A stretch of 15,377 nt of DNA from a virus (taxonomy: Duplodnaviria; Heunggongvirae; Uroviricota; Caudoviricetes). Under the pieces are notes generated by a model. It was not told the origin of the DNA. It made no database searches and saw only the letters and a list, made by a program, of their open reading frames with translations. How positions within the stretch are numbered: position 1 is the stretch's first letter; each line of letters starts with the position of its first letter. The position numbers and the translations under genes are program-made. The stretch lies in the IMG/VR virus record IMGVR_UViG_2713896899_000015. The stretch is one strand, 5' to 3'. Shown one piece after another: positions 7,032 to 15,377 of the stretch.

Positions 7032-8201
7032 CTAGCCAGCTTTCATTTCCAGAATTTTGATGGCGTTTGAATCCACCACACCACCGCCCAGATATTTATC
7101 CGTGTGGACCTTGTAGAATCCGGGTTCAGTAATGTTGTCCGGTCGGGTGCGAATCCCTGTTACATGATCAACGATGAAATAACCACGACTGAAATCGCCA
7201 ACCGCTAGCGGTGCTTTTCCTGCGCCGATGTCCGGCATGGACTCCAGGCAGTAAACAGGACGACCAAGCAACATATCCGGCGCACCTTCTTTAAGGCTGT
7301 CGCGCCAGATATAATCGCCGTTCTCATTTTTCAGCTTCTGTAGTGTCCCTGCCGTGCCCGAGTTCATCACCCAGACGGCATTTTTGCGGTATTTCGCTTT
7401 CAGCTTGTAGAGAATGTCGATCAGTTCGTCCGCTGTAATGGCGGTTCCACTTGCCGCTACCATTTTTTCAATGGTGCCAAAAGCGCGGGTTTTGTCACTG
7501 GTCGCCGCACGGGTGTAAGCCATGAATCCTTTCGGCTTGCCGTTACCGTCGCCATTAACAAAATCATCCTCTTCGGTGCTGGCGAACGTGTCGGCAATTT
7601 CGGAGGATAACCAGCCCAGAATATCCACCTCTGAAAAATCCAAGATTTCCTGCGTGGTTTTCGGGTAGGCGTAGATCGGATTCAGCTTGATGGTTACGCG
7701 TTCAATTTTCGGGGTGTTGGTTTCGCTGCGCGCGCTGCCTTCTGTGCCTCTTCCTACAGTTGCGCCGCCAGTGGAAACCAGTTTCTGAAACTCATTTGAT
7801 TTTGCGGTCTTCACGGTCGCGATCACGCGCATAACACTGTCATCCTGTAGCTGGCGCATGACTTCGCGATCAAGCTCAGGAATTACGGTATATCCGCCAT
7901 CCCTGCCGCTGTCAGTGCTGGTGGACAGTGATCGCACATCTCCGGTTACGATATAGTTACGCAATTCATCAGATGATAATTTCTGGATGCCCGTTCCTGG
8001 CTTGCTGCGTTCTTCATCAGCCACAGACTCGAGGCGGGAAATTTCTGTGTCGAGGGAATCGGCTTTTGCACGCAGTTCATCAAACTGTTTGCCCTCGTCA
8101 TCGTTCAGGCTGCGGTTTTCACTGTCGGCTTTTTCCAGCAGGGATCGCATCTGGTTTTTCAGGGCGGTTTTTTGCTGGCGGAGTTCGATTAATTTCTTCA
8201 T
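7032..8201 (-). CDS. Major capsid protein, HK97 fold, with N-terminal coiled-coil delta (scaffold) domain (389 aa)
   Basis: N-terminal ~100 aa is charged and heptad-like (delta domain). C-terminal region GTAGTLQKL...LLGRPV...GDFSRGYFIVD is typical of HK97-family capsid proteins. No separate scaffold gene. Confidence 0.9.
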   Translation of the reverse strand: MKKLIELRQQKTALKNQMRSLLEKADSENRSLNDDEGKQFDELRAKADSLDTEISRLESVADEERSKPGTGIQKLSSDELRNYIVTGDVRSLSTSTDSGRDGGYTVIPELDREVMRQLQDDSVMRVIATVKTAKSNEFQKLVSTGGATVGRGTEGSARSETNTPKIERVTIKLNPIYAYPKTTQEILDFSEVDILGWLSSEIADTFASTEEDDFVNGDGNGKPKGFMAYTRAATSDKTRAFGTIEKMVAASGTAITADELIDILYKLKAKYRKNAVWVMNSGTAGTLQKLKNENGDYIWRDSLKEGAPDMLLGRPVYCLESMPDIGAGKAPLAVGDFSRGYFIVDHVTGIRTRPDNITEPGFYKVHTDKYLGGGVVDSNAIKILEMKAG

Positions 8202-8401
8202 GAAGGTTTTCTCGTATTGGTTAAGATTCAGGACGTGAAACCAACACGGAGGGAGCGCCGCCCGACACTCTCGGCATCTCGCAGATCAACCCGGCATCGC
8301 GCAGGGGGTCAGGCGGCATTGTGGCGGCTCACGTCTGAGTGCCACACGCCAACATATACATAAAAATCAGTATGTAAACATCAGCCAGAATCACCGAACA
8401 A

Positions 8402-8470
8402 CCTGGAACAACCACGAACAAATAATTTACAAAACCTGAAAAAAAGACCTGAAAAAAAATCTAGGCCTTT
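8402..8470. repeat. 3 x 10-bp phased units caccgaacaa / cctggaacaa / ccacgaacaa (8402-8431) plus tandem 13-bp acctgaaaaaaa(g/a) x2 (8445-8470), in the capsid-upstream intergenic gap
   Basis: Near-identical to the array at 201-230 (shared 17-mer ccacgaacaa...). Located in the 275-bp noncoding gap 8202-8476 upstream of the capsid gene. Candidate activator-binding site or late promoter. Confidence 0.7.
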
Positions 8471-8476
8471 ATCGCT

Positions 8477-8725
8477 TTATTGTTTCACTGGATCCCGCAT
8501 TCTGCGTCTTATTTTCCACAGATATTCGATCATCGCTTCCACCTGCTCACGGTTGGTTGCGAAAATTTCCCCGGTCAGTGAGCTGCGCAGAAAATCATGA
8601 TGATCCACAACAAACAACGCATCGGAAGAAAGCAGACGGCGATATTTTTTTGCTGTCGTGGTTTCCAGATCATCAAAACCATGAAACTTTTTATGTTGCT
8701 GAACTTCTTCAAATGTCACTGGCAT
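8477..8725 (-). CDS. Hypothetical protein (82 aa)
   Basis: ATG at 8723-8725 with a GGGGG Shine-Dalgarno 5 nt upstream. Overlaps the ProQ/FinO gene stop by 10 nt. No recognisable motif. Confidence 0.55.
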   Translation of the reverse strand: MPVTFEEVQQHKKFHGFDDLETTTAKKYRRLLSSDALFVVDHHDFLRSSLTGEIFATNREQVEAMIEYLWKIRRRMRDPVKQ

Positions 8726-9246
8726 GTATCCCCCTTTGCTGCCCGGCGCTGGCGCTTGTGCTTCTCATTCAGCGCCATCAGCCGCGTTTCTGCCTCCTGC
8801 TGTTCCTGTGGTGTCACTTCCCCACATGGCTGGCCTTTCAGGTCGTAGCGTACCCCACCAGCTATTAAGGCGCGGTAATAGCGCGGAGACTGCGCATAGG
8901 ATGCCAGCGTCGCACGTAATGCCCCCGGCCCGAATGTCAGCCCCCTGGCGGCGATATCCTGCATCAGGTCGTCGAATATCCCCACCTTAAGCGGCTTCGG
9001 TGCTTCCCGGCTGAATAATTCTGGCCACAATTCAATAAGGCGGTTAACGCGTCTGCGGTTTTTGCGCTGGCGTTTGGTCATATGCCGCCACGCTGTCGCC
9101 CCTGTGGGTTTCTGCTGTGCGTTCTGATTGCCGGGTATCACTTTATGCGCCGATGTGGTTTTATCCTGCTGCTGTGCCGCCTGCGGTATTTTCTGCGGCG
9201 TGCCGTAAATGCCTTTCGGTTTTCGGTTAATGGTCATCTTTGTCAT
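8716..9246 (-). CDS. ProQ/FinO-domain RNA-binding protein (176 aa; alternative start at 9237)
   Basis: C-terminal half KPLKVGIFDDL...LRATLASYAQSPRYYRALIAGGVRYDLKGQPCGEV aligns by eye with E. coli ProQ (RPLKIGIFQDL...LRSALRLYTSSWRYL...RVDLDGNPCGEL). Basic, low-complexity N-terminus. Confidence 0.85.
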   Translation of the reverse strand: MTKMTINRKPKGIYGTPQKIPQAAQQQDKTTSAHKVIPGNQNAQQKPTGATAWRHMTKRQRKNRRRVNRLIELWPELFSREAPKPLKVGIFDDLMQDIAARGLTFGPGALRATLASYAQSPRYYRALIAGGVRYDLKGQPCGEVTPQEQQEAETRLMALNEKHKRQRRAAKGDTCQ

Positions 9247-9282
9247 GCCTTCCCCTGTAATAACTCTGTTCGCTGTTGTGAA

Positions 9283-9708
9283 TTAAAACGGTATGTTGTC
9301 CCCGTACGGATCATCGTGCTGGCCTGTCTGTTGTTTTGCCCTGTTCAGTGCGTCAGTGGCCTGGCCCTGTTGACCTTTTTTGCCGCCCGGTCGCGCCGTT
9401 CGCGCACTGATTACGCTGTCTGCAATAACCTGCCAGCCCTGCCGCGTTTCGCCGTTCTGCCCTGTCCACTGGCTTACCTGCATGTTACCCACCACGCTCA
9501 CCAGTTCGCCTTTGCGGTGTTTTGCCAGTGCGTCGGCCTGTCTGCCAAACGCCAGGACAGATAACCACATCGTCGCCGTTCCGTCATCTGCCTGGCTGCA
9601 CGGCAGGGGAACCGCCATACTCGCCATCGCCATTTGTGTCCCCTTGCTGGTGGTCTTTAACTGCGGGTCAGCCACCAGCCGCCCGTAAGCCGCTATCTGT
9701 GCTGTCAT
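9283..9708 (-). CDS. ssb: Single-stranded DNA-binding protein (SSB), 141 aa
   Basis: OB-fold pattern GRLVADPQL...W.SVLAFGRQA..LAKHRKGELVSVVG.MQVSQWTGQNGETRQ, Gly/Gln-rich linker, and C-terminal acidic tail DDPYGDNIPF (the SSB DIPF signature). Confidence 0.85.
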   Translation of the reverse strand: MTAQIAAYGRLVADPQLKTTSKGTQMAMASMAVPLPCSQADDGTATMWLSVLAFGRQADALAKHRKGELVSVVGNMQVSQWTGQNGETRQGWQVIADSVISARTARPGGKKGQQGQATDALNRAKQQTGQHDDPYGDNIPF

Positions 9709-9770
9709 GCTGTCTGTTCTCCGGTTTTAACGTTGATGGTTACGCTTGTTTACACCCTTACGGTGAAATT

Positions 9771-9919
9771 CTGCGGGTTATAATCGCGCTTTTGCGGGTT
9801 ATAACTGCCGTTTTGCGGGTTATTTTGGGTATTTTGCGGGTTACGATTTTTCTTTCATTCCTTTAATAATCAAATGGATACTGATTTATCCACAGAAATA
9901 ACCCGCATAACCCGCAAAA
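9771..9919. repeat. Iteron-type replication origin (cluster B) immediately downstream of the primase gene
   Basis: Four forward iterons tgcgggtt(at) at 9772, 9793, 9814 and 9835, exactly 21 bp apart. AT-rich core 9845-9896. Two contiguous reverse iterons ataacccgca / taacccgcaaaa at 9897-9919. Sits between primase stop (9945) and ssb start (9708), as in PICI pri-rep-ori. Confidence 0.65.
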
Positions 9920-9944
9920 TTTTCACTCTACACGCGAGAAAAAA

Positions 9945-12080
9945 TTAATCTTCTTCGCTTTCTGGCTGGAACATCAGCACGTAAAAAACATGCTGCTTCC
10001 CCCCAATTTTGCCGAGCGCCTTTTTCTTGTAACGGCGATCGTTACCCGCTTCCAGCATTCCGGCAGCACTCAACGCGCGGGCAAAGTGAGACGGATTAAA
10101 TCCCTGTGCTATCTCACCCTCAAATACATGCGGGAATGTGTAAAAACGGAACTCGTCATCTTCGTTTCTGATACTCCCCTTTCTGTATCCGGCAAGCTCT
10201 TTAATCGGTAAATCACGCTCGTCAGAGTTGGGCCAGGGAAGGTATCTGCTGAATCCGAACGACGCTAAAAAAGCCTCTGCCTGTTCAACCATCTGTTTAA
10301 ACTCCCTGTTACCCGTGCCGAACTCCTTCACCCAGGCATTAAAATTATGCTGTATGGCATCGCGGCATTCCTGCTCATCCCAGCCAGTAACATGACCTGA
10401 AAGCACAAGCGCGGCCTCCAGTATGGCAAATCGCTCCCCCACACGGTGAACCTGTTCGCCGTAGCTCTCCGGTATCAGGTTGCGCCACCGCTCACGGCAT
10501 GTCCTTACCGTGTCCTTTGCCTCCTGCTGGTGTTCTGCCAGCCATTTAACCCACTCACGACCCGCTGCCCCGTGATTTTCTGTCCAGGCATCCTTTAACG
10601 CGTCTGCGTGCGCCTTTCCGGTGCTGTATTCGTGAAATTGTGTGGCTTTTTCCATCGGCACGTTAAGCAGACGGACAAGCTGCCCCGCTTTAATTTTTAT
10701 CCCTTCCGTTTTGAGGAATGTTTCAACGTCCATTTCTCCGGTACTGATTGCCACCGTGCGCCAGTGTTTGATCTCCCTGTTGCCGCCGTCCTTCGCCCCC
10801 TGTAATTTCCCCGAACCGTTAAACAGCGTATAAGCCGACGTGGACACTTCCCGCGCGTTTCCGGCCTGACCTATTTCATCCAGGGGTAACAGCCCGTCAT
10901 TGTGCGCCTCTGCCTCGTTGGCGATGCCTAACGCTGTACCGTACCAGGTCAGCCGTTGCGCGTCCGGCTCTCCCCATAAACTGGATGCGATGTTCTGTGT
11001 GGTGGTTTTCCCTGCCGATGACTGTTCGAAAAGATGTACCCCGAAGCCGTCAGCACCCACCAGCCCGATTAATGGTGCGGATAATGATACCGCCACACCC
11101 AGCATCATGGACGGATTACCACCAGCCAACCGCGCAACGGTATCGCGCCAGCCCTCCGCCGTTCCTGCCACGGAATAACCATTAACAGCGGCAGTTTTTC
11201 CGGTAAACAGGACTGGCTTTTCGCAATCACCAATGACCGAACCGTCCGGCATGATGTACGCGCCAAAATGCCAGCCCGTTGTTGTGCTTAACTGCCATTC
11301 CTCATGGTTTCCGCTTAACTGCATCCAGTCAGCCAGGATAGCCCTGTATTTACCGTTGGTTGTCACATTCAGTCCGTGGTCTTTCAGCAGCCGCCAGCCG
11401 TCACGGTCGCCAATGCCCCCACACGGGATCGCCATTGTGATGACTTCATGGTTTGCTGGTTTTTTCCAGCGCATCACGCGGTAATGCTCTTTGCCGATTG
11501 TCCCCGTTCCCAGTAGTTCAAGCGGGGAACATAACCACGTCTCAGGCCGGATAATTTCGCCTGACTGCTTATCCACTTTTGGCGTTACCCAGAAAACACC
11601 ATCGGCACGGCTTTCAACGCGGGGCTTTAATTCATCATCACCCGGGCTTGTGGTGGTTTTTTTCTTTACCGGAAGTTTAATTACCAGATCTGCAGAAAGA
11701 TTCTGACGCTCAACGTTCAGATAGCGCCGCCAGTTCTCGCATTTCTGACCGTGCATTCCTTCAGGGTAAAAATTCGCATCCTGAATATCTGCCGCCGCCA
11801 GCTTCTGACCGATCTTTTTGGTCTCCACTAAATCCAGTTCTCCGGCCTGGTACAGCCTTACGCGTTTTTTCCCATCCGGAACAATTTTCAGCGCATCAAG
11901 TTCGGCAAGCTGATTTGGCCCAAGCCACACAGGCGGCACATCATCGCCAGATGCGGGGCCGTCCTGCTCCTGCCACTGTTTTGCATGTGCCCACGCATCA
12001 CTACCCGCGAAAATAATTACCTCTGTGTCTTTGTGTTTTATTCCGCGTGGTTGTTTTTTTACGTTCGGTGCCAGTTTCAT
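9945..12080 (-). CDS. Replication initiator, primase/helicase-type (PICI Pri-Rep / P4 alpha-like), 711 aa
   Basis: Large multidomain protein with a P-loop (SSAGKTT) in the central region. Directly upstream of the iteron origin. ATG at 12078-12080 overlaps the preceding gene stop (ATGA). Domain family not verified by search. Confidence 0.75.
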   Translation of the reverse strand: MKLAPNVKKQPRGIKHKDTEVIIFAGSDAWAHAKQWQEQDGPASGDDVPPVWLGPNQLAELDALKIVPDGKKRVRLYQAGELDLVETKKIGQKLAAADIQDANFYPEGMHGQKCENWRRYLNVERQNLSADLVIKLPVKKKTTTSPGDDELKPRVESRADGVFWVTPKVDKQSGEIIRPETWLCSPLELLGTGTIGKEHYRVMRWKKPANHEVITMAIPCGGIGDRDGWRLLKDHGLNVTTNGKYRAILADWMQLSGNHEEWQLSTTTGWHFGAYIMPDGSVIGDCEKPVLFTGKTAAVNGYSVAGTAEGWRDTVARLAGGNPSMMLGVAVSLSAPLIGLVGADGFGVHLFEQSSAGKTTTQNIASSLWGEPDAQRLTWYGTALGIANEAEAHNDGLLPLDEIGQAGNAREVSTSAYTLFNGSGKLQGAKDGGNREIKHWRTVAISTGEMDVETFLKTEGIKIKAGQLVRLLNVPMEKATQFHEYSTGKAHADALKDAWTENHGAAGREWVKWLAEHQQEAKDTVRTCRERWRNLIPESYGEQVHRVGERFAILEAALVLSGHVTGWDEQECRDAIQHNFNAWVKEFGTGNREFKQMVEQAEAFLASFGFSRYLPWPNSDERDLPIKELAGYRKGSIRNEDDEFRFYTFPHVFEGEIAQGFNPSHFARALSAAGMLEAGNDRRYKKKALGKIGGKQHVFYVLMFQPESEED

Positions 12081-12364
12081 TTCTTACCCCCTGCGACCAG
12101 CATTTCACGGATTTTGCGGATATAGCTTGCTGCACGTTTCTGATTTACGGCTTTACGATGGCCCACCAGCGTGAAATCACGCCGGAATTGATAAACAGGC
12201 ATCACGCAGTCATATTCGTAACCTTCACGGCGGTAGGTGATGCGCCGTTCTGCCACGCCTTTAATCGTTACCATGCCGCCATATTTATCGCGGTAAATAT
12301 CGCCGTTCATAAATTCAGGACGAGCGGGGCCGCTGGCAGTAACGCCAGAATTTTTATTTTTCAT
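12077..12364 (-). CDS. Hypothetical protein (95 aa)
   Basis: ATG at 12362-12364, GGAG upstream, ATGA coupling to the primase gene. Basic. No recognisable motif. Confidence 0.6.
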   Translation of the reverse strand: MKNKNSGVTASGPARPEFMNGDIYRDKYGGMVTIKGVAERRITYRREGYEYDCVMPVYQFRRDFTLVGHRKAVNQKRAASYIRKIREMLVAGGKK

Positions 12365-12369
12365 GTTTT

Positions 12370-12597
12370 TTATTCTCCGGTGTGCTGCGCTTTATTATTC
12401 TCGTGAATTGCCATCACTGTATTTAATTCATTAATTACTGGCGTTAATAATGTGTGCACGGCAGAAAACATCATGGGATATGATTCATCGCCATTTTCCT
12501 GCACTTCCATTAACTTAAGTAATAATGCCTCCATTTCCTTTGCGCGGATTAATGCGTTTTCAGAATGAACAAGAACATCAAAGGGTATTTTATGCAT
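12370..12597 (-). CDS. Hypothetical protein (75 aa)
   Basis: ATG at 12595-12597 overlaps the upstream gene stop (ATGCATAA). Helical-looking, acidic. No recognisable motif. Confidence 0.6.
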   Translation of the reverse strand: MHKIPFDVLVHSENALIRAKEMEALLLKLMEVQENGDESYPMMFSAVHTLLTPVINELNTVMAIHENNKAQHTGE

Positions 12598-12793
12598 GAC
12601 TCACCCCCTGACGAATACGGGCGGCGAATACCATCACGCAGCCAGCCGGGGATTGCTGGCGTGCTTCCTGTTCGCTGGTGGCCTCAATGGTAATCACGCG
12701 CGGTTGTGCCGTGCTCAGGGCGATAAAACGCCAGATATATTTATTCAGGTTGTGCGAGTCCCGCCCTTGCGGGTGTGTGGTATGATTTAACAT
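12590..12793 (-). CDS. Hypothetical protein (67 aa), first gene of the leftward replication operon
   Basis: ATG at 12791-12793 preceded by a strong GAGGT Shine-Dalgarno. The 306-aa ORF in the track is this frame extended upstream through the divergent promoter and RHH gene, which is judged spurious. Confidence 0.55.
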   Translation of the reverse strand: MLNHTTHPQGRDSHNLNKYIWRFIALSTAQPRVITIEATSEQEARQQSPAGCVMVFAARIRQGVSHA

Positions 12794-12992
12794 AGCTACC
12801 TCGATACGCTTTCTATCGTTGGTGGTTAGAAGCCCTGCGAGTGATAACGACACTTGCGGGGCTTTGCATTTATGCACCTTGACAACCTCAAGGTGTGGCC
12901 CACTATATTCTTTAGGTGTGGCCCACGTCAAGAGTTTTATTTGTGCTTTTTCTGTGTATACTGTCCCCCACCAATCCAACAGAGGAATAGAA
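12794..12992. promoter_or_regulatory. Divergent promoter/operator region between the replication operon (-) and the RHH gene (+)
   Basis: Consensus -35 TTGACA at 12879-12884 with candidate -10 TATATT at 12904-12909 (19-bp spacer). Two perfect 13-bp direct repeats aggtgtggcccac at 12891-12903 and 12914-12926 overlap the -10 and start region. TATACT at 12957-12962. GAGG Shine-Dalgarno before the RHH ATG. Confidence 0.5.
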
Positions 12993-13172
12993 ATGGCAAC
13001 GGGTACAACAAACGCAAAATCACAAGCTCTAAAGGCTCGTGTACCACACGAAATAGTAAACGCCATGGAATCAGTGAAAGAATCAGGCGAAAGCACATCA
13101 CAATTCATCATTGCGTCAATGCAAGGCGAGATCAAACGCCGCCAGCGACGCAAAGCCAAGGAGTCAGAATAA
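12993..13172 (+). CDS. Ribbon-helix-helix (CopG/Arc/MetJ-like) DNA-binding protein, 59 aa; candidate island repressor/regulator
   Basis: ATG at 12993 with GAGGAATAGAA Shine-Dalgarno. Sequence KARVPHEIVNAMESVKESGESTSQFIIASMQGEI fits the RHH pattern (beta-strand RVP, helix, G.S.S..I, helix). Confidence 0.65.
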   Translation: MATGTTNAKSQALKARVPHEIVNAMESVKESGESTSQFIIASMQGEIKRRQRRKAKESE

Positions 13173-13229
13173 TCACTATCAGCGCCGTGGTGTGAGTAAC
13201 TACGGCGCATTGCTATGCAGGTGCTTACC

Positions 13230-13409
13230 ATGAACGATAAAGAGTTAAAAAAAACACCACCACAAACACTGAAAGGACAGCGCAAAAAGATAGCGCATGA
13301 GCATGAATCAGAAAGATTCGCCCCCTGTTCTTTTGCTCTTGAGAAATTCCTTAAGGAGCACAAGAAAAAGCTATCATTGCAAACCAGGGAACGAACCGAA
13401 TCTGACTGA
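13230..13409 (+). CDS. Hypothetical small Lys-rich protein (59 aa), co-transcribed with the RHH gene
   Basis: ATG at 13230 with AGGTG 6 nt upstream. Followed by an intrinsic terminator. A stem gcgccgt/acggcgc (13182-13208) lies between the two genes. No recognisable motif. Confidence 0.4.
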   Translation: MNDKELKKTPPQTLKGQRKKIAHEHESERFAPCSFALEKFLKEHKKKLSLQTRERTESD

Positions 13410-13473
13410 TCACATTGCCCACCAGCCAGCAAATCGCTATGATGTTCGGGCTTATGTTTAGTGTTTTCCCATT

Positions 13474-13501
13474 GGCGACCGCCCCCGGTCGCCTTTGTTT
13501 T
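13474..13501 (+). terminator. Rho-independent terminator of the RHH operon
   Basis: Stem ggcgaccg (13474-13481), loop cccc, stem cggtcgcc (13486-13493), then tttgtttt. There is no U-tract on the other strand, so it is unidirectional. Confidence 0.7.
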
Positions 13502-13520
13502 ATGTGTCATATACTCCCCT

Positions 13521-13730
13521 TTACGCTGCCTTGCCTGAATTAATGCGATCCCGGCTTTTAACCCATTCCATAACCTCGGACAGCAGCCAACCTACAGAAC
13601 GACCGCCCAGATTAAGGCGTGACGGAAATCGCCCTTTTTTCTCCAGTTCGTAGCGTGTAGTGCGACACACTCCAGTTAACTTACGACATTCATCCTCACG
13701 GATTACGCGATCTTCATTTATTTCACGCAT
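13521..13730 (-). CDS. alpA: AlpA-family (MerR/excisionase-like) transcriptional regulator, 69 aa
   Basis: LTGVCRTTRYELEKKGRFPSRLNLGGRSVGWLLSEVMEWVKSR matches the AlpA/Xis helix-turn-helix pattern (..T.Y.....G.FP....LG.R.VGW...EV.EW...R). ATG at 13728-13730 with AGGT Shine-Dalgarno. The track's longer ORF starts at a GTG (13817) with no Shine-Dalgarno. Confidence 0.8.
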   Translation of the reverse strand: MREINEDRVIREDECRKLTGVCRTTRYELEKKGRFPSRLNLGGRSVGWLLSEVMEWVKSRDRINSGKAA

Positions 13731-13817
13731 ACAAAAACCTACATAAAAATTACGTATATAAACTTTTCTCTTAGCTGTAGATATATGAGATCGGATATTA
13801 CTTAGATTCTTTTTCAC

Positions 13818-14138: not shown

Positions 14139-15377
14139 TCAAGAATTTTGGGTGTAAATTCGCGGGGTCATAACAACGATTTTTTCATCATTGTTCTGGA
14201 GAAGCTCGAGACGGTCTACCCATAGATTAAGAGCATCACGTTTTGCATCAAGATAACGGGAGTGGTTATAGACTCGTTGCATCCCTGGCATCTGGTGGGC
14301 TGTAAGCTGCTCGACAATATGCGGATCCACGCCTAAATCGTTCAGCATGGTTGTAAATGTGTGCCGGATATCGTGTAACGTCCAGGGGGCTTGATTAATT
14401 CGTCTGTGCGCTGTTCTTCCGTACTCTGCTACGGATGATTGCCCTTTCAGTTCTCCAAGCAATAAGCCCGTGTGCCTGTTCTTCTCCACCAGCTGCGTGA
14501 CGAACGGCAGAATGCTTTCCGGTATTGGTCTGAATATGGCGACCTTCGTTTTGCTGTGCTCCTTCGGTACTGTCCAGAGCATTTCCTTAAAATCCCACTC
14601 CTGCACCTCAGAGCGCCTTAGCTCAGTGGTACGGCATCCAAAAACAATCAGGAGGCGAATTAGGGCGCTGTAGTACGGCGGGAAGATTTTTTCATCCAGT
14701 GCGCGGAGTAGTTCCCCAAGCTCTTTGTTTGTCAGTACACGCTCACTTATTTCTGCTTTTTTCCCCACATCACCTACGACCATATCATCAAGAACGTTGC
14801 TGATTGCGTATCGTCGTTTTCGGCAGTACTTAAGCGCCTGTTTGCATACCTGTAGCAAAAATCCGGCTGATACCGGATTACGCTTAGCAAGCTGGTCAAA
14901 ACAGGCCAGCCAGTGGCGTAGCTCGCATTTTTCCAGTGGCATAGCGCCAATCTGGCTAATTATGTGTTTATTGATCCGGCTTTTCAGTGATTCGTAGTCA
15001 GTGCGCTTTTCCTTTGCGTACGATTCAAGCCAGTAAGTGAGCGCTTCCTTAACCGTCACGGGGGCTAACGCATCCTGTACAGCATGATTAAGTTCATAAC
15101 GCGGATTTTTCCCCTCAGCCAGCCAGGCGCGACACTGTGCCGCTTTTTCCCTGGCAGCTTTCAGGCTCAGATCGGGATAATTGCCCAGCCTCAGACGTTC
15201 CGGTGATATCTGCCTACCAGTTCCGGCCCTGTAAGTGAAATACCAGGTTAACAGGCCATTGATTGAATGCCTTACGCTAAGGTTGCCACCATCATTAAAA
15301 AAGGTGCTTTTTGTGGTTGGTGATCCGCTTAATTTTCGTAAAAGAGTGTCGCTAAGTCTATGAATTGCCCTGCTCAT
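14139..15377 (-). CDS. int: Tyrosine recombinase / site-specific integrase, P4-like (412 aa; start codon on the window edge)
   Basis: C-terminal catalytic region HDIRHTF...LTAHQMPGMQRVYNHSRY contains the H-x-x-R and terminal Tyr nucleophile context of tyrosine integrases. Size is typical of P4-family integrases. The ATG occupies 15375-15377, so a further upstream start cannot be excluded. Confidence 0.9.
   Translation of the reverse strand: MSRAIHRLSDTLLRKLSGSPTTKSTFFNDGGNLSVRHSINGLLTWYFTYRAGTGRQISPERLRLGNYPDLSLKAAREKAAQCRAWLAEGKNPRYELNHAVQDALAPVTVKEALTYWLESYAKEKRTDYESLKSRINKHIISQIGAMPLEKCELRHWLACFDQLAKRNPVSAGFLLQVCKQALKYCRKRRYAISNVLDDMVVGDVGKKAEISERVLTNKELGELLRALDEKIFPPYYSALIRLLIVFGCRTTELRRSEVQEWDFKEMLWTVPKEHSKTKVAIFRPIPESILPFVTQLVEKNRHTGLLLGELKGQSSVAEYGRTAHRRINQAPWTLHDIRHTFTTMLNDLGVDPHIVEQLTAHQMPGMQRVYNHSRYLDAKRDALNLWVDRLELLQNNDEKIVVMTPRIYTQNS

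Follow-up and report, generated by a model that had tools for sequence, protein, structure and literature searches.

Gene content and organization of the island

In the present study, we analysed a 15,377-nt viral sequence, referred to below as the window. Profile searches with Pfam and PHROG models showed that it carried genes for an integrase, AlpA, a primase/replication protein with an origin, capsid, protease, portal, connectors, HNH, TerS and TerL. Genes for tails or lysis were absent from the window, and this gene content is the one that defines capsid-forming PICIs (cf-PICIs, about 10-17 kb). Over 6-8 kb, the window was 96-99% identical to E. coli islands flanked by int and by chromosomal or prophage genes. 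The window is a capsid-forming, PICI-type phage satellite of 15 kb, as an earlier sequence-only reading had supposed. That reading had also described an SSB gene and a gene for a ProQ/FinO-domain protein lying together after a replication origin. Both ORFs were confirmed on the minus strand, and an iteron array was found at 9709-9944. The features of this region, in the direction of transcription of the minus strand, were as follows:

12902..12931, minus strand: sigma-70-like promoter match TTGACG-18-TATAGT (10/12 consensus positions, the best in the window)
12077..12364, minus strand: DUF4222 small ORF, 95 aa (PF13973, E 1.1e-24)
9945..12080, minus strand: DUF927 primase/helicase-type replication protein, 711 aa (PF06048, E 1.1e-45)
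9709..9944, no strand: iteron-type replication origin (sequence feature) between the primase-helicase gene and the SSB gene
9283..9708, minus strand: SSB gene, 141 aa, with an OB fold, a short linker and the tip D-N-I-P-F (PF00436, TIGR00621, phrog_44)
8716..9246, minus strand: ProQ/FinO-family gene, 176 aa, 19.9 kDa, pI 10.5 (PF04352, PDB matches, AF2/Foldseek)
8477..8725, minus strand: 82-aa ORF of a function-unknown family (phrog_1957, E 1.6e-36)
8439..8470, minus strand: terminator-like hairpin GGCCU-A-GA / U7 loop / UC-AGGUC followed by a U run (read from the sequence and present in the MFE fold)
7032-8201: capsid gene (PF05065, E 2e-71), beyond the 8477-8725 ORF and 275 nt of non-coding sequence

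The promoter match at 12902..12931, which is a consensus match only, lies upstream of an Icd-like ORF and is the putative start of an operon that would run through the SSB, FinO-domain and 82-aa genes. The DUF4222 ORF precedes the replication gene, as it also does in related islands with that region annotated, and its stop is overlapped by the start of the DUF927 gene, whose product additionally gave a weak match to a cassette-chromosome replicative helicase. The interval from the primase gene to the SSB gene contained no promoter-like site. The SSB and FinO-domain genes are separated by 36 nt, and the ATG of the 82-aa ORF overlaps the stop codon of the FinO-domain gene by 10 nt (8716-8725). 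Directly after the 82-aa ORF lies the hairpin at 8439..8470, the putative 3' end of the replication operon with the SSB and FinO-domain genes. Its fold energy was no better than that of shuffled sequences (z = -0.9), and the terminator consensus scan missed it because of its bulge. The best explanation of this organization is that the segment with the SSB and FinO-domain genes carries the end of the cf-PICI replication operon.

The origin contained six copies of TAACCCGCA(A/G)AA, four of them at 9769-9843 with 21-nt spacing and two inverted at 9899-9919, and the spacer between the iteron groups was AT-rich (GC 0.32-0.33, 9800-9949). In the whole window, 10 iteron matches were counted versus 0.21 expected by chance. 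The same arrangement was present in the related islands L001, L006 and L010.

The 82-aa ORF was found in 134 E. coli genomes and stands where classical PICIs have PerC. It had no match in Pfam, NCBIfam or PADLOC, and its AF2 model was uninformative (pLDDT 50). The possibility that it is a diverged PerC was rejected, as it showed no similarity to PerC.

The SSB gene

The assignment of the 141-aa product as an SSB held. It matched PF00436 with an E of 2.9e-16 and 59.8 bits (cut-off 26), TIGR00621 with 61.1 bits (cut-off 53.95) and phrog_44 with an E of 1.4e-39, and 25 solved SSBs matched it at E <= 0.001. The tail had been read as DIPF; the C-terminal end is instead ...DDPYGDNIPF, that is, D-x-IPF. 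D137, I139, P140 and F141 were invariant in all eight aligned sequences (seven island SSBs and E. coli SSB). An OB fold and an acidic C-terminal tip ending in IPF are common to the SSB family and the island protein, which shares 30% identity with the SSB of the E. coli host. The host protein is longer (178 aa versus 141), with a longer linker and the tip D-D-D-I-P-F, whereas the island SSB has a short linker and D-N-I-P-F. SSB-family proteins bind ssDNA as homotetramers. W48, F54 and W81 of the island SSB aligned with W54, F60 and W88 of E. coli SSB, three of its four aromatic ssDNA-contact positions; the equivalents of W40 and H55 were not conserved. The dN/dS values of 0.06-0.19 indicated purifying selection.

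According to the published classification, the replication category of PICIs comprises SSB, primase and a mapped ori (PMC10111431), and in that module the SSB gene adjoins the primase and ori, just as it does here. RefSeq names this SSB identically in 1352 of 5426 complete E. coli genomes. The island SSB would coat the ssDNA exposed when the neighbouring iteron origin is opened by the DUF927 primase-helicase. Its D-x-IPF tip may engage host proteins whose usual docking site is the host SSB. As a routine part of the PICI replication module, the SSB is of lesser importance here.

The SSB might instead serve mainly as a decoy or in counter-defence, by titrating the partners of the host SSB or by masking ssDNA from nucleases and sensors of the host or helper. 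Such a function would fit a protein that has kept the partner-binding tip at only 30% identity to the host SSB and that is very common in PICIs (1352 genomes). We nevertheless consider it very unlikely, given that the gene always adjoins the primase and ori, that constraint is strong (dN/dS 0.06-0.19), that three of the four aromatic contact positions align, that PADLOC gave no match and that the published classification places SSB in the replication module.

The ProQ/FinO-family protein

The Pfam search proposed in the sequence-only reading was run, and it placed the protein in the predicted family and not in another one. The match to PF04352 (E 4.1e-25, 88.3 bits, gathering 27) covered residues 64-168 and profile positions 5-108 of 109. 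Among solved structures, the best relatives by sequence were the ProQ N-terminal domain (5nb9, E 8e-13) and FinO (1dvo, E 7e-11), with further PDB sequence matches to NMB1681 and RocC. These matches, together with the superposition on FinO, bore out the claim that the C-terminal half of the protein aligns with the ProQ N-terminal FinO domain.

The protein consists of a disordered basic N-terminal extension (1-57), a FinO domain (about 58-145) and a long C-terminal helix (146-172). The AF2 model, with a pLDDT of 87-96 over residues 60-170, contained helices at 58-73, 90-101, 107-118, 121-129 and 146-172 and strands at 132-134 and 140-143, thus displaying the helical bowl and two-stranded beta hairpin that characterize the FinO fold. 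The top 27 Foldseek matches were all FinO, NMB1681, RocC, Lpp1663 or ProQ. Superposition of the model on FinO gave an rmsd of 1.9 A across 102 columns, and the TM-score to RocC was 0.83 (normalised to RocC).

In a study of E. coli ProQ, R58, Y70 and R80 are reported as essential for all seven RNAs tested (PMC10168233). These residues, which belong to the concave-face pocket for the RNA 3' end, aligned to R111, Y123 and R133 of the island protein, positions that were kept in 20/24, 23/24 and 23/24 diverse relatives, respectively. The positions of ProQ K54 and R62, which contribute moderately to binding, were not conserved in the island protein, and one subclade had Cys at the positions of ProQ R58 and R69. 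The net charge of the island protein is +19. Members of the ProQ/FinO family are basic proteins of 14-27 kDa (PMC9977716), a description that its mass of 19.9 kDa and pI of 10.5 fit. The dN/dS of the gene was 0.24-0.36, indicating purifying selection; the SSB and FinO-domain genes are therefore far beyond chance ORFs. These results suggested that the protein probably binds RNA. It is an ordinary member of a known family and forms a separate clade that is neither FinO, ProQ nor FopA.

No PADLOC match was obtained for the SSB, the FinO-domain protein or the 82-aa protein (0/3), and a defence-system role was rejected.

Distribution and accessory status

RefSeq names the ProQ/FinO gene in 319 of 5426 complete E. 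coli genomes (~6%). Neither gene is new, as both are already labelled in public genomes. The novelty implied by the sequence-only reading has to be withdrawn, since NCBI annotation names both in hundreds of genomes, and ProQ/FinO-like genes on satellites were mentioned in passing in two papers of 2026 (PMC13612085, PMC13230959). In the literature searched, no function was given for the ProQ/FinO proteins or SSBs that PICIs encode.

Both types of PICI, classical and capsid-forming, repeatedly showed the order primase, ori, SSB and ProQ/FinO, with PerC or a small ORF next, in Escherichia, Salmonella and Citrobacter. Fifteen related island contexts were inspected overall. In 13 of 13 contexts, which came from E. 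coli, E. ruysiae, E. albertii, Salmonella and Citrobacter, the FinO-domain gene lay directly after the primase-ori(-SSB) unit. Its position was the same with DUF927, D5/DUF5906 primase or RepA helicase replication proteins. Breadth was taken from the protein database and the E. coli genomes; a scan of one genome per species added only two loci, in E. ruysiae and E. albertii. Among phage genomes, FinO-domain genes were found in 7 of 50,697 records, with none from Escherichia phages.

The capsid-forming island of O157:H7 (L010) carried the SSB and lacked the ProQ/FinO gene. From its strain and gene order, we take L010 to be the prototype EcCIEDL933. It shares with the window island the order int, alpA, DUF4222, primase, ori, SSB, capsid, protease, portal, connectors, HNH, TerS and TerL, the absence of tail genes, a length of about 15 kb and the origin iterons, but has PerC and small ORFs where the window island has the FinO-domain gene and the 82-aa ORF. 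In the cf-PICI paper, EcCIEDL933 was shown to be induced by a helper phage and to be transferred in small capsids of its own to which helper tails are joined. Given its presence in 319 genomes versus 1352 for the SSB and its absence from L010, the FinO-domain gene is an optional accessory and not a core element of the satellite life cycle. The statement in the sequence-only reading that neither gene is required for capsid formation was addressed in part and indirectly, by capsid-forming L010, which lacks the FinO-domain gene and has an SSB. Capsid formation is assigned to the capsid and packaging genes (cf-PICI paper).

These distribution data also bear on a direct role of the FinO-domain protein in replication together with the SSB, for example by binding or stabilising primer RNAs, R-loops or origin-crossing transcripts instead of regulating gene expression. 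The gene was always located by the ori and was directly joined to the SSB gene in at least 161 genomes, and a review of FinO and ProQ points to a pervasive connection between this family and DNA metabolism. On the other hand, the gene also occurred without SSB (L003, L007), it was missing from many islands that share the origin and primase (e.g. L010), and no FinO-domain protein is known to act on primers or R-loops. A direct replication role is improbable.

Search for a partner RNA

The Rfam scan detected no family in the window at E <= 1. In the related islands, C4/isrK was present only in L005 and L008 and the int-alpA RNA only in L003 and L006. Neither tracked the FinO-domain gene across islands, and both were rejected as partners. 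A plus-strand terminator-like hairpin within the SSB gene (9352-9374) was also discarded, as its T-run was lost in L005 and L008. The window contained 19 terminator-like sites versus 18.3 expected by chance. The 275-nt leader of the capsid gene was rejected as a structured target, with a fold z-score of -1.3 and with L010 having the capsid module without the FinO-domain gene.

One antisense candidate was located at the start of DUF4222, with a promoter-like site at 12188-12216 and a hairpin at 12333-12348 followed by a T-run. The hairpin sequence was invariant across 12 islands, but it showed no covariation and overlaps a conserved peptide. The fold z-score was -1.4, so that this candidate, like the operon terminator, folded no better than shuffled sequence, and its T-run was degenerate in L006, which has the FinO-domain gene. 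An antisense RNA at the DUF4222 start was kept as a lead only. Since the replication protein type varies among islands with the gene, a partner tied to one replicon is unlikely.

Proposed role of the FinO-domain protein

Proteins of the ProQ/FinO family bind hairpins followed by a single-stranded 3' tail with high affinity, and they protect RNAs and promote duplex formation. The FinO-domain protein may act as a small basic FinO-type RNA chaperone. Its R111/Y123/R133 pocket would clamp the base of the terminator hairpin and the 3' U-tail of a few RNAs, and a clamped RNA would be shielded from 3' exonucleases and helped to pair with a complementary transcript. We tentatively propose that the protein provides post-transcriptional tuning, after induction, of replication or gene expression in the satellite itself. 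Such self-regulation is the most probable job by analogy with FinO, which controls transfer, and with FopA and PcnR, which control the replication of their own plasmids. Against it, we know of no case in which PICI replication is under antisense control.

The protein could also act outward, by binding helper or host RNAs, and thereby interfere with or re-time the helper in favour of the satellite, or change the physiology or virulence of the host in concert with a neighbouring PerC-type regulator. The candidate RNAs would be antisense RNAs, the 3' ends of late or regulatory transcripts and ProQ-dependent sRNAs. An optional gene (319 versus 1352 genomes for the SSB, and none in L010) in a variable slot common to PerC and small function-unknown ORFs, independent of the replication protein type and with no island-encoded partner RNA detected in the searches made, is consistent with outward action. 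The regulons of ProQ and Neisseria ProQ are likewise broad and include phage and island RNAs (PMC9977716). However, nothing found here identified a helper or host target, and the characterised mobile-element proteins FinO, FopA and PcnR act mainly on the RNAs of their own element. Moreover, the grouping of the gene with replication genes implies probable silence in uninduced lysogens and hence a limit on host-directed roles. Outward action is thus possible, though on balance we consider it rather unlikely.

A narrower proposal is that the protein is a satellite weapon, capturing the 3' terminator ends of helper RNAs, or of host RNAs that the helper needs, and so re-timing or damping helper late genes. 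We regard this as a long shot. If true, it would be the first satellite-helper interference by an RNA chaperone, and it would explain why FinO-domain genes are common in PICIs and almost absent from phage genomes.

PerC is described in the literature as a virulence or accessory gene. Its occurrence after the FinO-domain gene in classical PICIs is as compatible with an accessory module directed at the host as it is with self-regulation.

Among bacterial RNA chaperones, FinO-domain proteins make up the third major class. The members studied on mobile elements (FinO, FopA and PcnR) each control the transfer or copy number of their own element via one cognate antisense RNA. To our knowledge, satellite regulation has so far been described at the protein and DNA level. 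The satellite-borne FinO clade, found in ~6% of complete E. coli genomes and across Escherichia, Salmonella and Citrobacter, suggests RNA-level control in satellite biology. Its RNA ligand, once found, would be either a new regulatory RNA in PICIs or evidence of a satellite acting on helper or host RNAs.

Comparison with known FinO-domain systems

FinO of F-like plasmids (1dvo, NF010317) was the best structural match, with 35% identity over the FinO domain. The two proteins share their layout, namely a basic N-terminal extension and no ProQ-type C-terminal domain, and both are encoded on mobile elements. The island protein scored 66.4 bits against NF010317, below the cut-off of 136, and is therefore not FinO proper. 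FinO is also plasmid-borne, at the end of the tra region, whereas the island gene is chromosomal without tra neighbours; all 363 places of the island-type gene in E. coli were chromosomal. The partner RNA of FinO is FinP, and the Rfam scan found no match to a FinP-like RNA in the window. In the N-terminal extension, LTINRKPKG showed a weak similarity of nine residues to LTLKRKTEG of FinO (hhalign P 0.029); otherwise, the extension was not alignable with those of FinO and FopA. The idea that the F-plasmid pair of FinO and an ANR regulator is the ancestor of the ProQ and PerC pair was rejected, as the ANR protein and PerC showed no similarity.

ProQ (5nb9, NF003434) was the best sequence match among solved structures, and the essential pocket residues are common to both proteins. 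Against NF003434, the island protein scored 59.6 bits (cut-off 127) over profile positions 6-117 of 205 only, so it is not ProQ proper. ProQ has a linker and a C-terminal Tudor-like domain, whereas the island protein lacks both, ends 8 residues after the C-terminal helix of the domain and carries its extension at the N-terminus. In contrast to ProQ, it is carried by islands, and only 6% of E. coli genomes have it.

RocC of Legionella pneumophila (7rgt, 7rgu) has the same fold as the island protein, with 27-31% identity. RocC is a product of the core genome, encoded on the chromosome, and is extended by a long segment at its C-terminus; its partner RocR has no counterpart in the island. The RocC-RNA crystal structure provides a template for how the pocket would grip the 3' end of a terminator.

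FopA (pCol1B9, IncI1) and PcnR (IncI2) combine N-terminal basic stretches with a C-terminal FinO domain and are encoded on mobile elements, as here. The identity between FopA and the island protein was 36% over 83 residues of the FinO domain only, which does not place the latter in the FopA clade. The partner antisense RNA of FopA is Inc, and no counterpart was detected in the island. The island has an iteron origin and a primase-helicase instead of an antisense-controlled RepZ/RepA replicon. FinO is a repressor of transfer, and FopA and PcnR each repress replication of the plasmid on which they are encoded (PMC9977716, PMC7491321, PMC8053102). In Vibrio satellite-plasmids, a ProQ/FinO-like gene lies beside parA and repA (PMC13230959). 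The fopA and pcnR genes are located near the replicon that they control, and they serve as the working model for the function of the island protein.

Gene content of the window

All convincing genes in the 15,377-base window were on the minus strand. In transcription order, the features were as follows.

14139-15377, minus: tyrosine integrase, first in the order
13521-13817, minus: AlpA-family regulator
end of an implausible 306-codon frame, minus: short Icd-like ORF
between the Icd-like and DUF4222 ORFs, minus: 75-aa ORF
12077-12364, minus: DUF4222 ORF, its stop overlapped by the primase gene start
9945-12080, minus: DUF927 primase/helicase-type protein, 711 aa
between the primase and SSB genes: non-coding DNA, 236 nt
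9283-9708, minus: SSB ORF
8716-9246, minus: FinO-domain ORF
8477-8725, minus: 82-aa ORF
between the 82-aa ORF and the capsid gene: non-coding DNA, 275 nt
after the 275-nt gap, minus: HK97-type capsid gene, then prohead protease, portal, head-closure and adaptor proteins
after the head genes, minus, last in the order: HNH endonuclease, small and large terminase subunits

Tail and lysis genes were absent from the window. The gene set and order are those of a capsid-forming phage-inducible chromosomal island (PICI), and the window was 96-99% identical over 6-8 kb to islands of this type in complete E. coli genomes.

The 306-codon minus-strand ORF (12590-13510) was Cys-rich and without a family match, with Icd-like resemblance limited to its last ~60 codons, and it looks spurious. 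On the plus strand opposite this frame, we observed a YlcI/YnfO-like ORF with ribbon-helix-helix-like sequence (12993-13172) and a 64-aa ORF (13215-13409), a unit ended by the strongest terminator of the window (13474-13493, plus strand). This unit converges on alpA and is antisense to the region from alpA to the Icd-like ORF.

In the last 1.5 kb (1-1540), past the 97-aa ORF that comes after the terminase gene, there was no convincing ORF. Some portion of it matched 5425 of 5426 E. coli genomes, mostly at 95-99% identity; thus the window probably extends beyond the island attachment site and takes in either core chromosomal DNA or a duplicated piece of the target gene. The segment 894-1197 matched the yifB-side junction region outside the island end in L002, a related island locus. 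In the bovine strain OkiPb01701 (L001; NZ_AP042598.1, 2527-19265), a near-identical island was located within a prophage large-terminase gene, with the halves on both sides. This helper-embedded configuration has been described (PMC10111431).

SSB gene and replication origin

The 141-aa product of 9283-9708 scored above the curated SSB thresholds of Pfam (E 2.9e-16) and NCBIfam TIGR00621 and matched 25 solved SSBs, with only 30% identity to E. coli SSB. Its C-terminus was DNIPF and not the DIPF proposed in the sequence-only reading; the D-x-IPF tip was invariant in all eight aligned proteins (seven island SSBs and E. coli SSB). The non-coding stretch upstream of the gene contained six copies of TAACCCGCA(A/G)AA, four at 21-nt spacing and opposed by two inverted copies over a spacer with 32-33% GC; only 0.21 such matches were expected by chance per whole window. 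Iteron origins are usually built in this way, and mapped PICI origins occupy this position (PMC10111431). The family scores and upstream iterons bore out the earlier placement of a canonical SSB right after the origin. The SSB is an ordinary component. It would most likely act in island replication at the adjoining origin, with its tip as the link to host replisome proteins, in agreement with its assignment to the PICI replication category (PMC10111431).

A second TAACCCGCA cluster was observed beyond the terminase genes (456-613), with two minus-strand copies followed by three plus-strand copies at 21-22-nt spacing, which is the inverted arrangement of the origin at 9769-9919. The two clusters were likewise apart in L001; in the O157:H7 capsid-forming island L010 they lay side by side, adjoining the primase gene. 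The second cluster could be another initiator-binding site or could be left over from an adjacent island.

Identity of the FinO-domain protein

The sequence-only reading had also placed a ProQ/FinO-domain protein beside the SSB and proposed a Pfam search, which returned the ProQ/FinO family for residues 64-168 of the 176-aa product of 8716-9246 (E 4.1e-25). The closest solved structure was the E. coli ProQ N-terminal domain, followed by FinO, NMB1681 and RocC. The AlphaFold model (24 relatives) had a pLDDT of 87-96 over residues 60-170 and was disordered before residue 45. Its top 27 structural neighbours were all FinO-domain proteins, and FinO superposed at 1.9 A. Compared with relatives at synonymous divergence of 0.1-1.7, dN/dS was 0.24-0.36 for this gene and 0.06-0.19 for the SSB gene, indicating that both are kept by selection, the FinO-domain gene more loosely.

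The subfamily scores were far under the NCBI cut-offs (66 vs 136 bits for FinO and 60 vs 127 bits for ProQ), and identity to FopA was only 36% over 83 residues. These results place the island protein, by sequence, in a clade separate from FinO, ProQ and FopA. Its layout, a basic disordered N-terminal extension without a C-terminal domain, was shared with plasmid FinO-domain proteins but not with ProQ. The extension carried a net charge of +12 over residues 1-63, and at 52-69 a conserved W preceded a run of Arg/Lys; a short N-terminal motif resembled the start of FinO at P 0.029 only.

In E. coli ProQ, R58, Y70 and R80 were found essential for the binding of each of seven tested RNAs (PMC10168233). 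Of 24 diverse relatives, 20, 23 and 23 had the aligned residues R111, Y123 and R133, respectively, and the size (19.9 kDa) and pI (10.5) fit the family expectation (PMC9977716). These features suggested that the protein likely still binds RNA through the 3'-end pocket. In the subclade of P0080, P0089 and P0113 (L014, a related locus; Citrobacter portucalensis), Cys occupied the positions of R111 and R122 (ProQ R58, an essential residue, and R69), while Y123 and R133 were kept. This subclade may have a changed RNA specificity.

Operon structure

The gap between the SSB and FinO-domain genes was 36 nt, and the FinO-domain stop and the start codon (ATG) of the 82-aa ORF shared a 10-nt overlap. 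A consensus scan found no promoter-like site between the primase and SSB genes; the best promoter match of the window was upstream of the Icd-like ORF, and a hairpin with a U run lay just 3' of the 82-aa ORF. From these consensus matches, we infer that the SSB and FinO-domain genes form the distal end of a single replication operon expressed on island induction.

Three features were noted in the non-coding stretch 8202-8476. A hairpin resembling a terminator, with U7 in the loop and a U-tail, is at 8439-8470; TTTTTTTCAGG occurs as two direct repeats; and the promoter-like TTTACA-16-TATGTT at 8378-8351 leads into ~150 nt of GC-rich leader, in which GC reaches 69%. The stretch probably separates the replication operon from the capsid/packaging operon.

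Candidate RNA partners

An Rfam scan of the window gave no matches even at E <= 1. Among classical PICIs, int-alpA RNA was observed between int and alpA in L003 (16403-16470) and L006 (16453-16520), and a C4 antisense RNA and isrK pair beside ash/icd genes in L005 (13282-13470) and L008 (6236-6424); all were absent from the window. These RNAs were sporadic among related islands and did not track the FinO-domain gene. An opposite-strand terminator-like hairpin within the SSB gene was rejected because it was not conserved.

Within 12333-12364, CTGGC-N6-GCCAG at codons 6-11 of the DUF4222 ORF was near-invariant in 12 islands, including synonymous positions, with flanks only 67-84% identical. Read on the plus strand, it has a promoter-like site ahead of it (12188-12216) and a T-run behind it that abuts the start codon. 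The element may act as a hairpin in translation, or it may terminate an antisense RNA directed at the primase-coupled leader ORF, which would be reminiscent of Inc and repY-repZ. The hairpin showed no covariation, folded no better than shuffles (z-score -1.4) and overlapped a conserved peptide; the T-run was missing in one island that carries the FinO-domain gene. The operon's own terminator was another, generic candidate ligand. None of the candidates in the window or the related islands reached the level of evidence.

Distribution and proposed role of the FinO-domain gene

Megablast against 5426 complete E. coli genomes found the SSB gene in 1352 of them and the FinO-domain gene in 319, at chromosomal places in all cases but one. 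The junction of the two genes was found in at least 161 genomes, and the 82-aa ORF in 134. The island contexts compared numbered 15 and came from E. coli, E. ruysiae, E. albertii, Salmonella enterica and Citrobacter portucalensis. Among them were 13 carriers, in all of which the FinO-domain gene directly followed the replication gene and origin, usually with the SSB gene in between, and this placement was the same with DUF927, D5/DUF5906 or RepA-helicase replication proteins. The next gene was a PerC-family regulator in classical PICIs, which are without capsid genes, and the 82-aa ORF, unrelated to PerC on comparison, in capsid-forming islands. L010, which we take to be the prototype EcCIEDL933, carried SSB and PerC and lacked the FinO-domain gene. 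The variable next gene and this absence indicated that the FinO-domain gene is accessory rather than core and occupies a variable slot.

Relatives were found in 7 of 50,697 phage records, none of them an Escherichia phage. Among the plasmid matches listed, FinO and other ProQ/FinO-family genes were below 42% identity; the sole closer one (60%), beside AlpA-family and phage-like genes, is apparently a fragment of a related island.

Both genes are already named, with their families, in the public NCBI annotation. FinO-domain proteins are typical of mobile elements, so one on an island is unsurprising to a specialist. To our knowledge, RNA-level control has so far not been described for this class of element. 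A survey of Enterobacter cloacae (PMC13612085) and a Vibrio study (PMC13230959) mention satellite ProQ/FinO-like genes briefly, and the literature searched contained no functional work on them. The protein is an uncharacterised family member on satellite islands and a reasonable experimental lead.

We tentatively propose that the protein would bind one or a few RNAs at their terminator hairpin and 3' tail, stabilise them and promote their pairing, with the island's own transcripts as the most probable target. Outward action, on RNAs of the helper or host, is only somewhat less probable, since the optional, PerC-linked and replicon-independent distribution of the gene fits it equally well. Direct action at the replication fork is improbable. 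Action on the island's own transcripts is suggested by the characterised members on mobile elements, which act in this way: FinO on FinP-traJ, FopA on Inc-repZ and PcnR on IncI2 copy number (PMC9977716, PMC7491321, PMC8053102). In Vibrio satellite-plasmids, a ProQ/FinO-like gene also accompanies repA and parA (PMC13230959).
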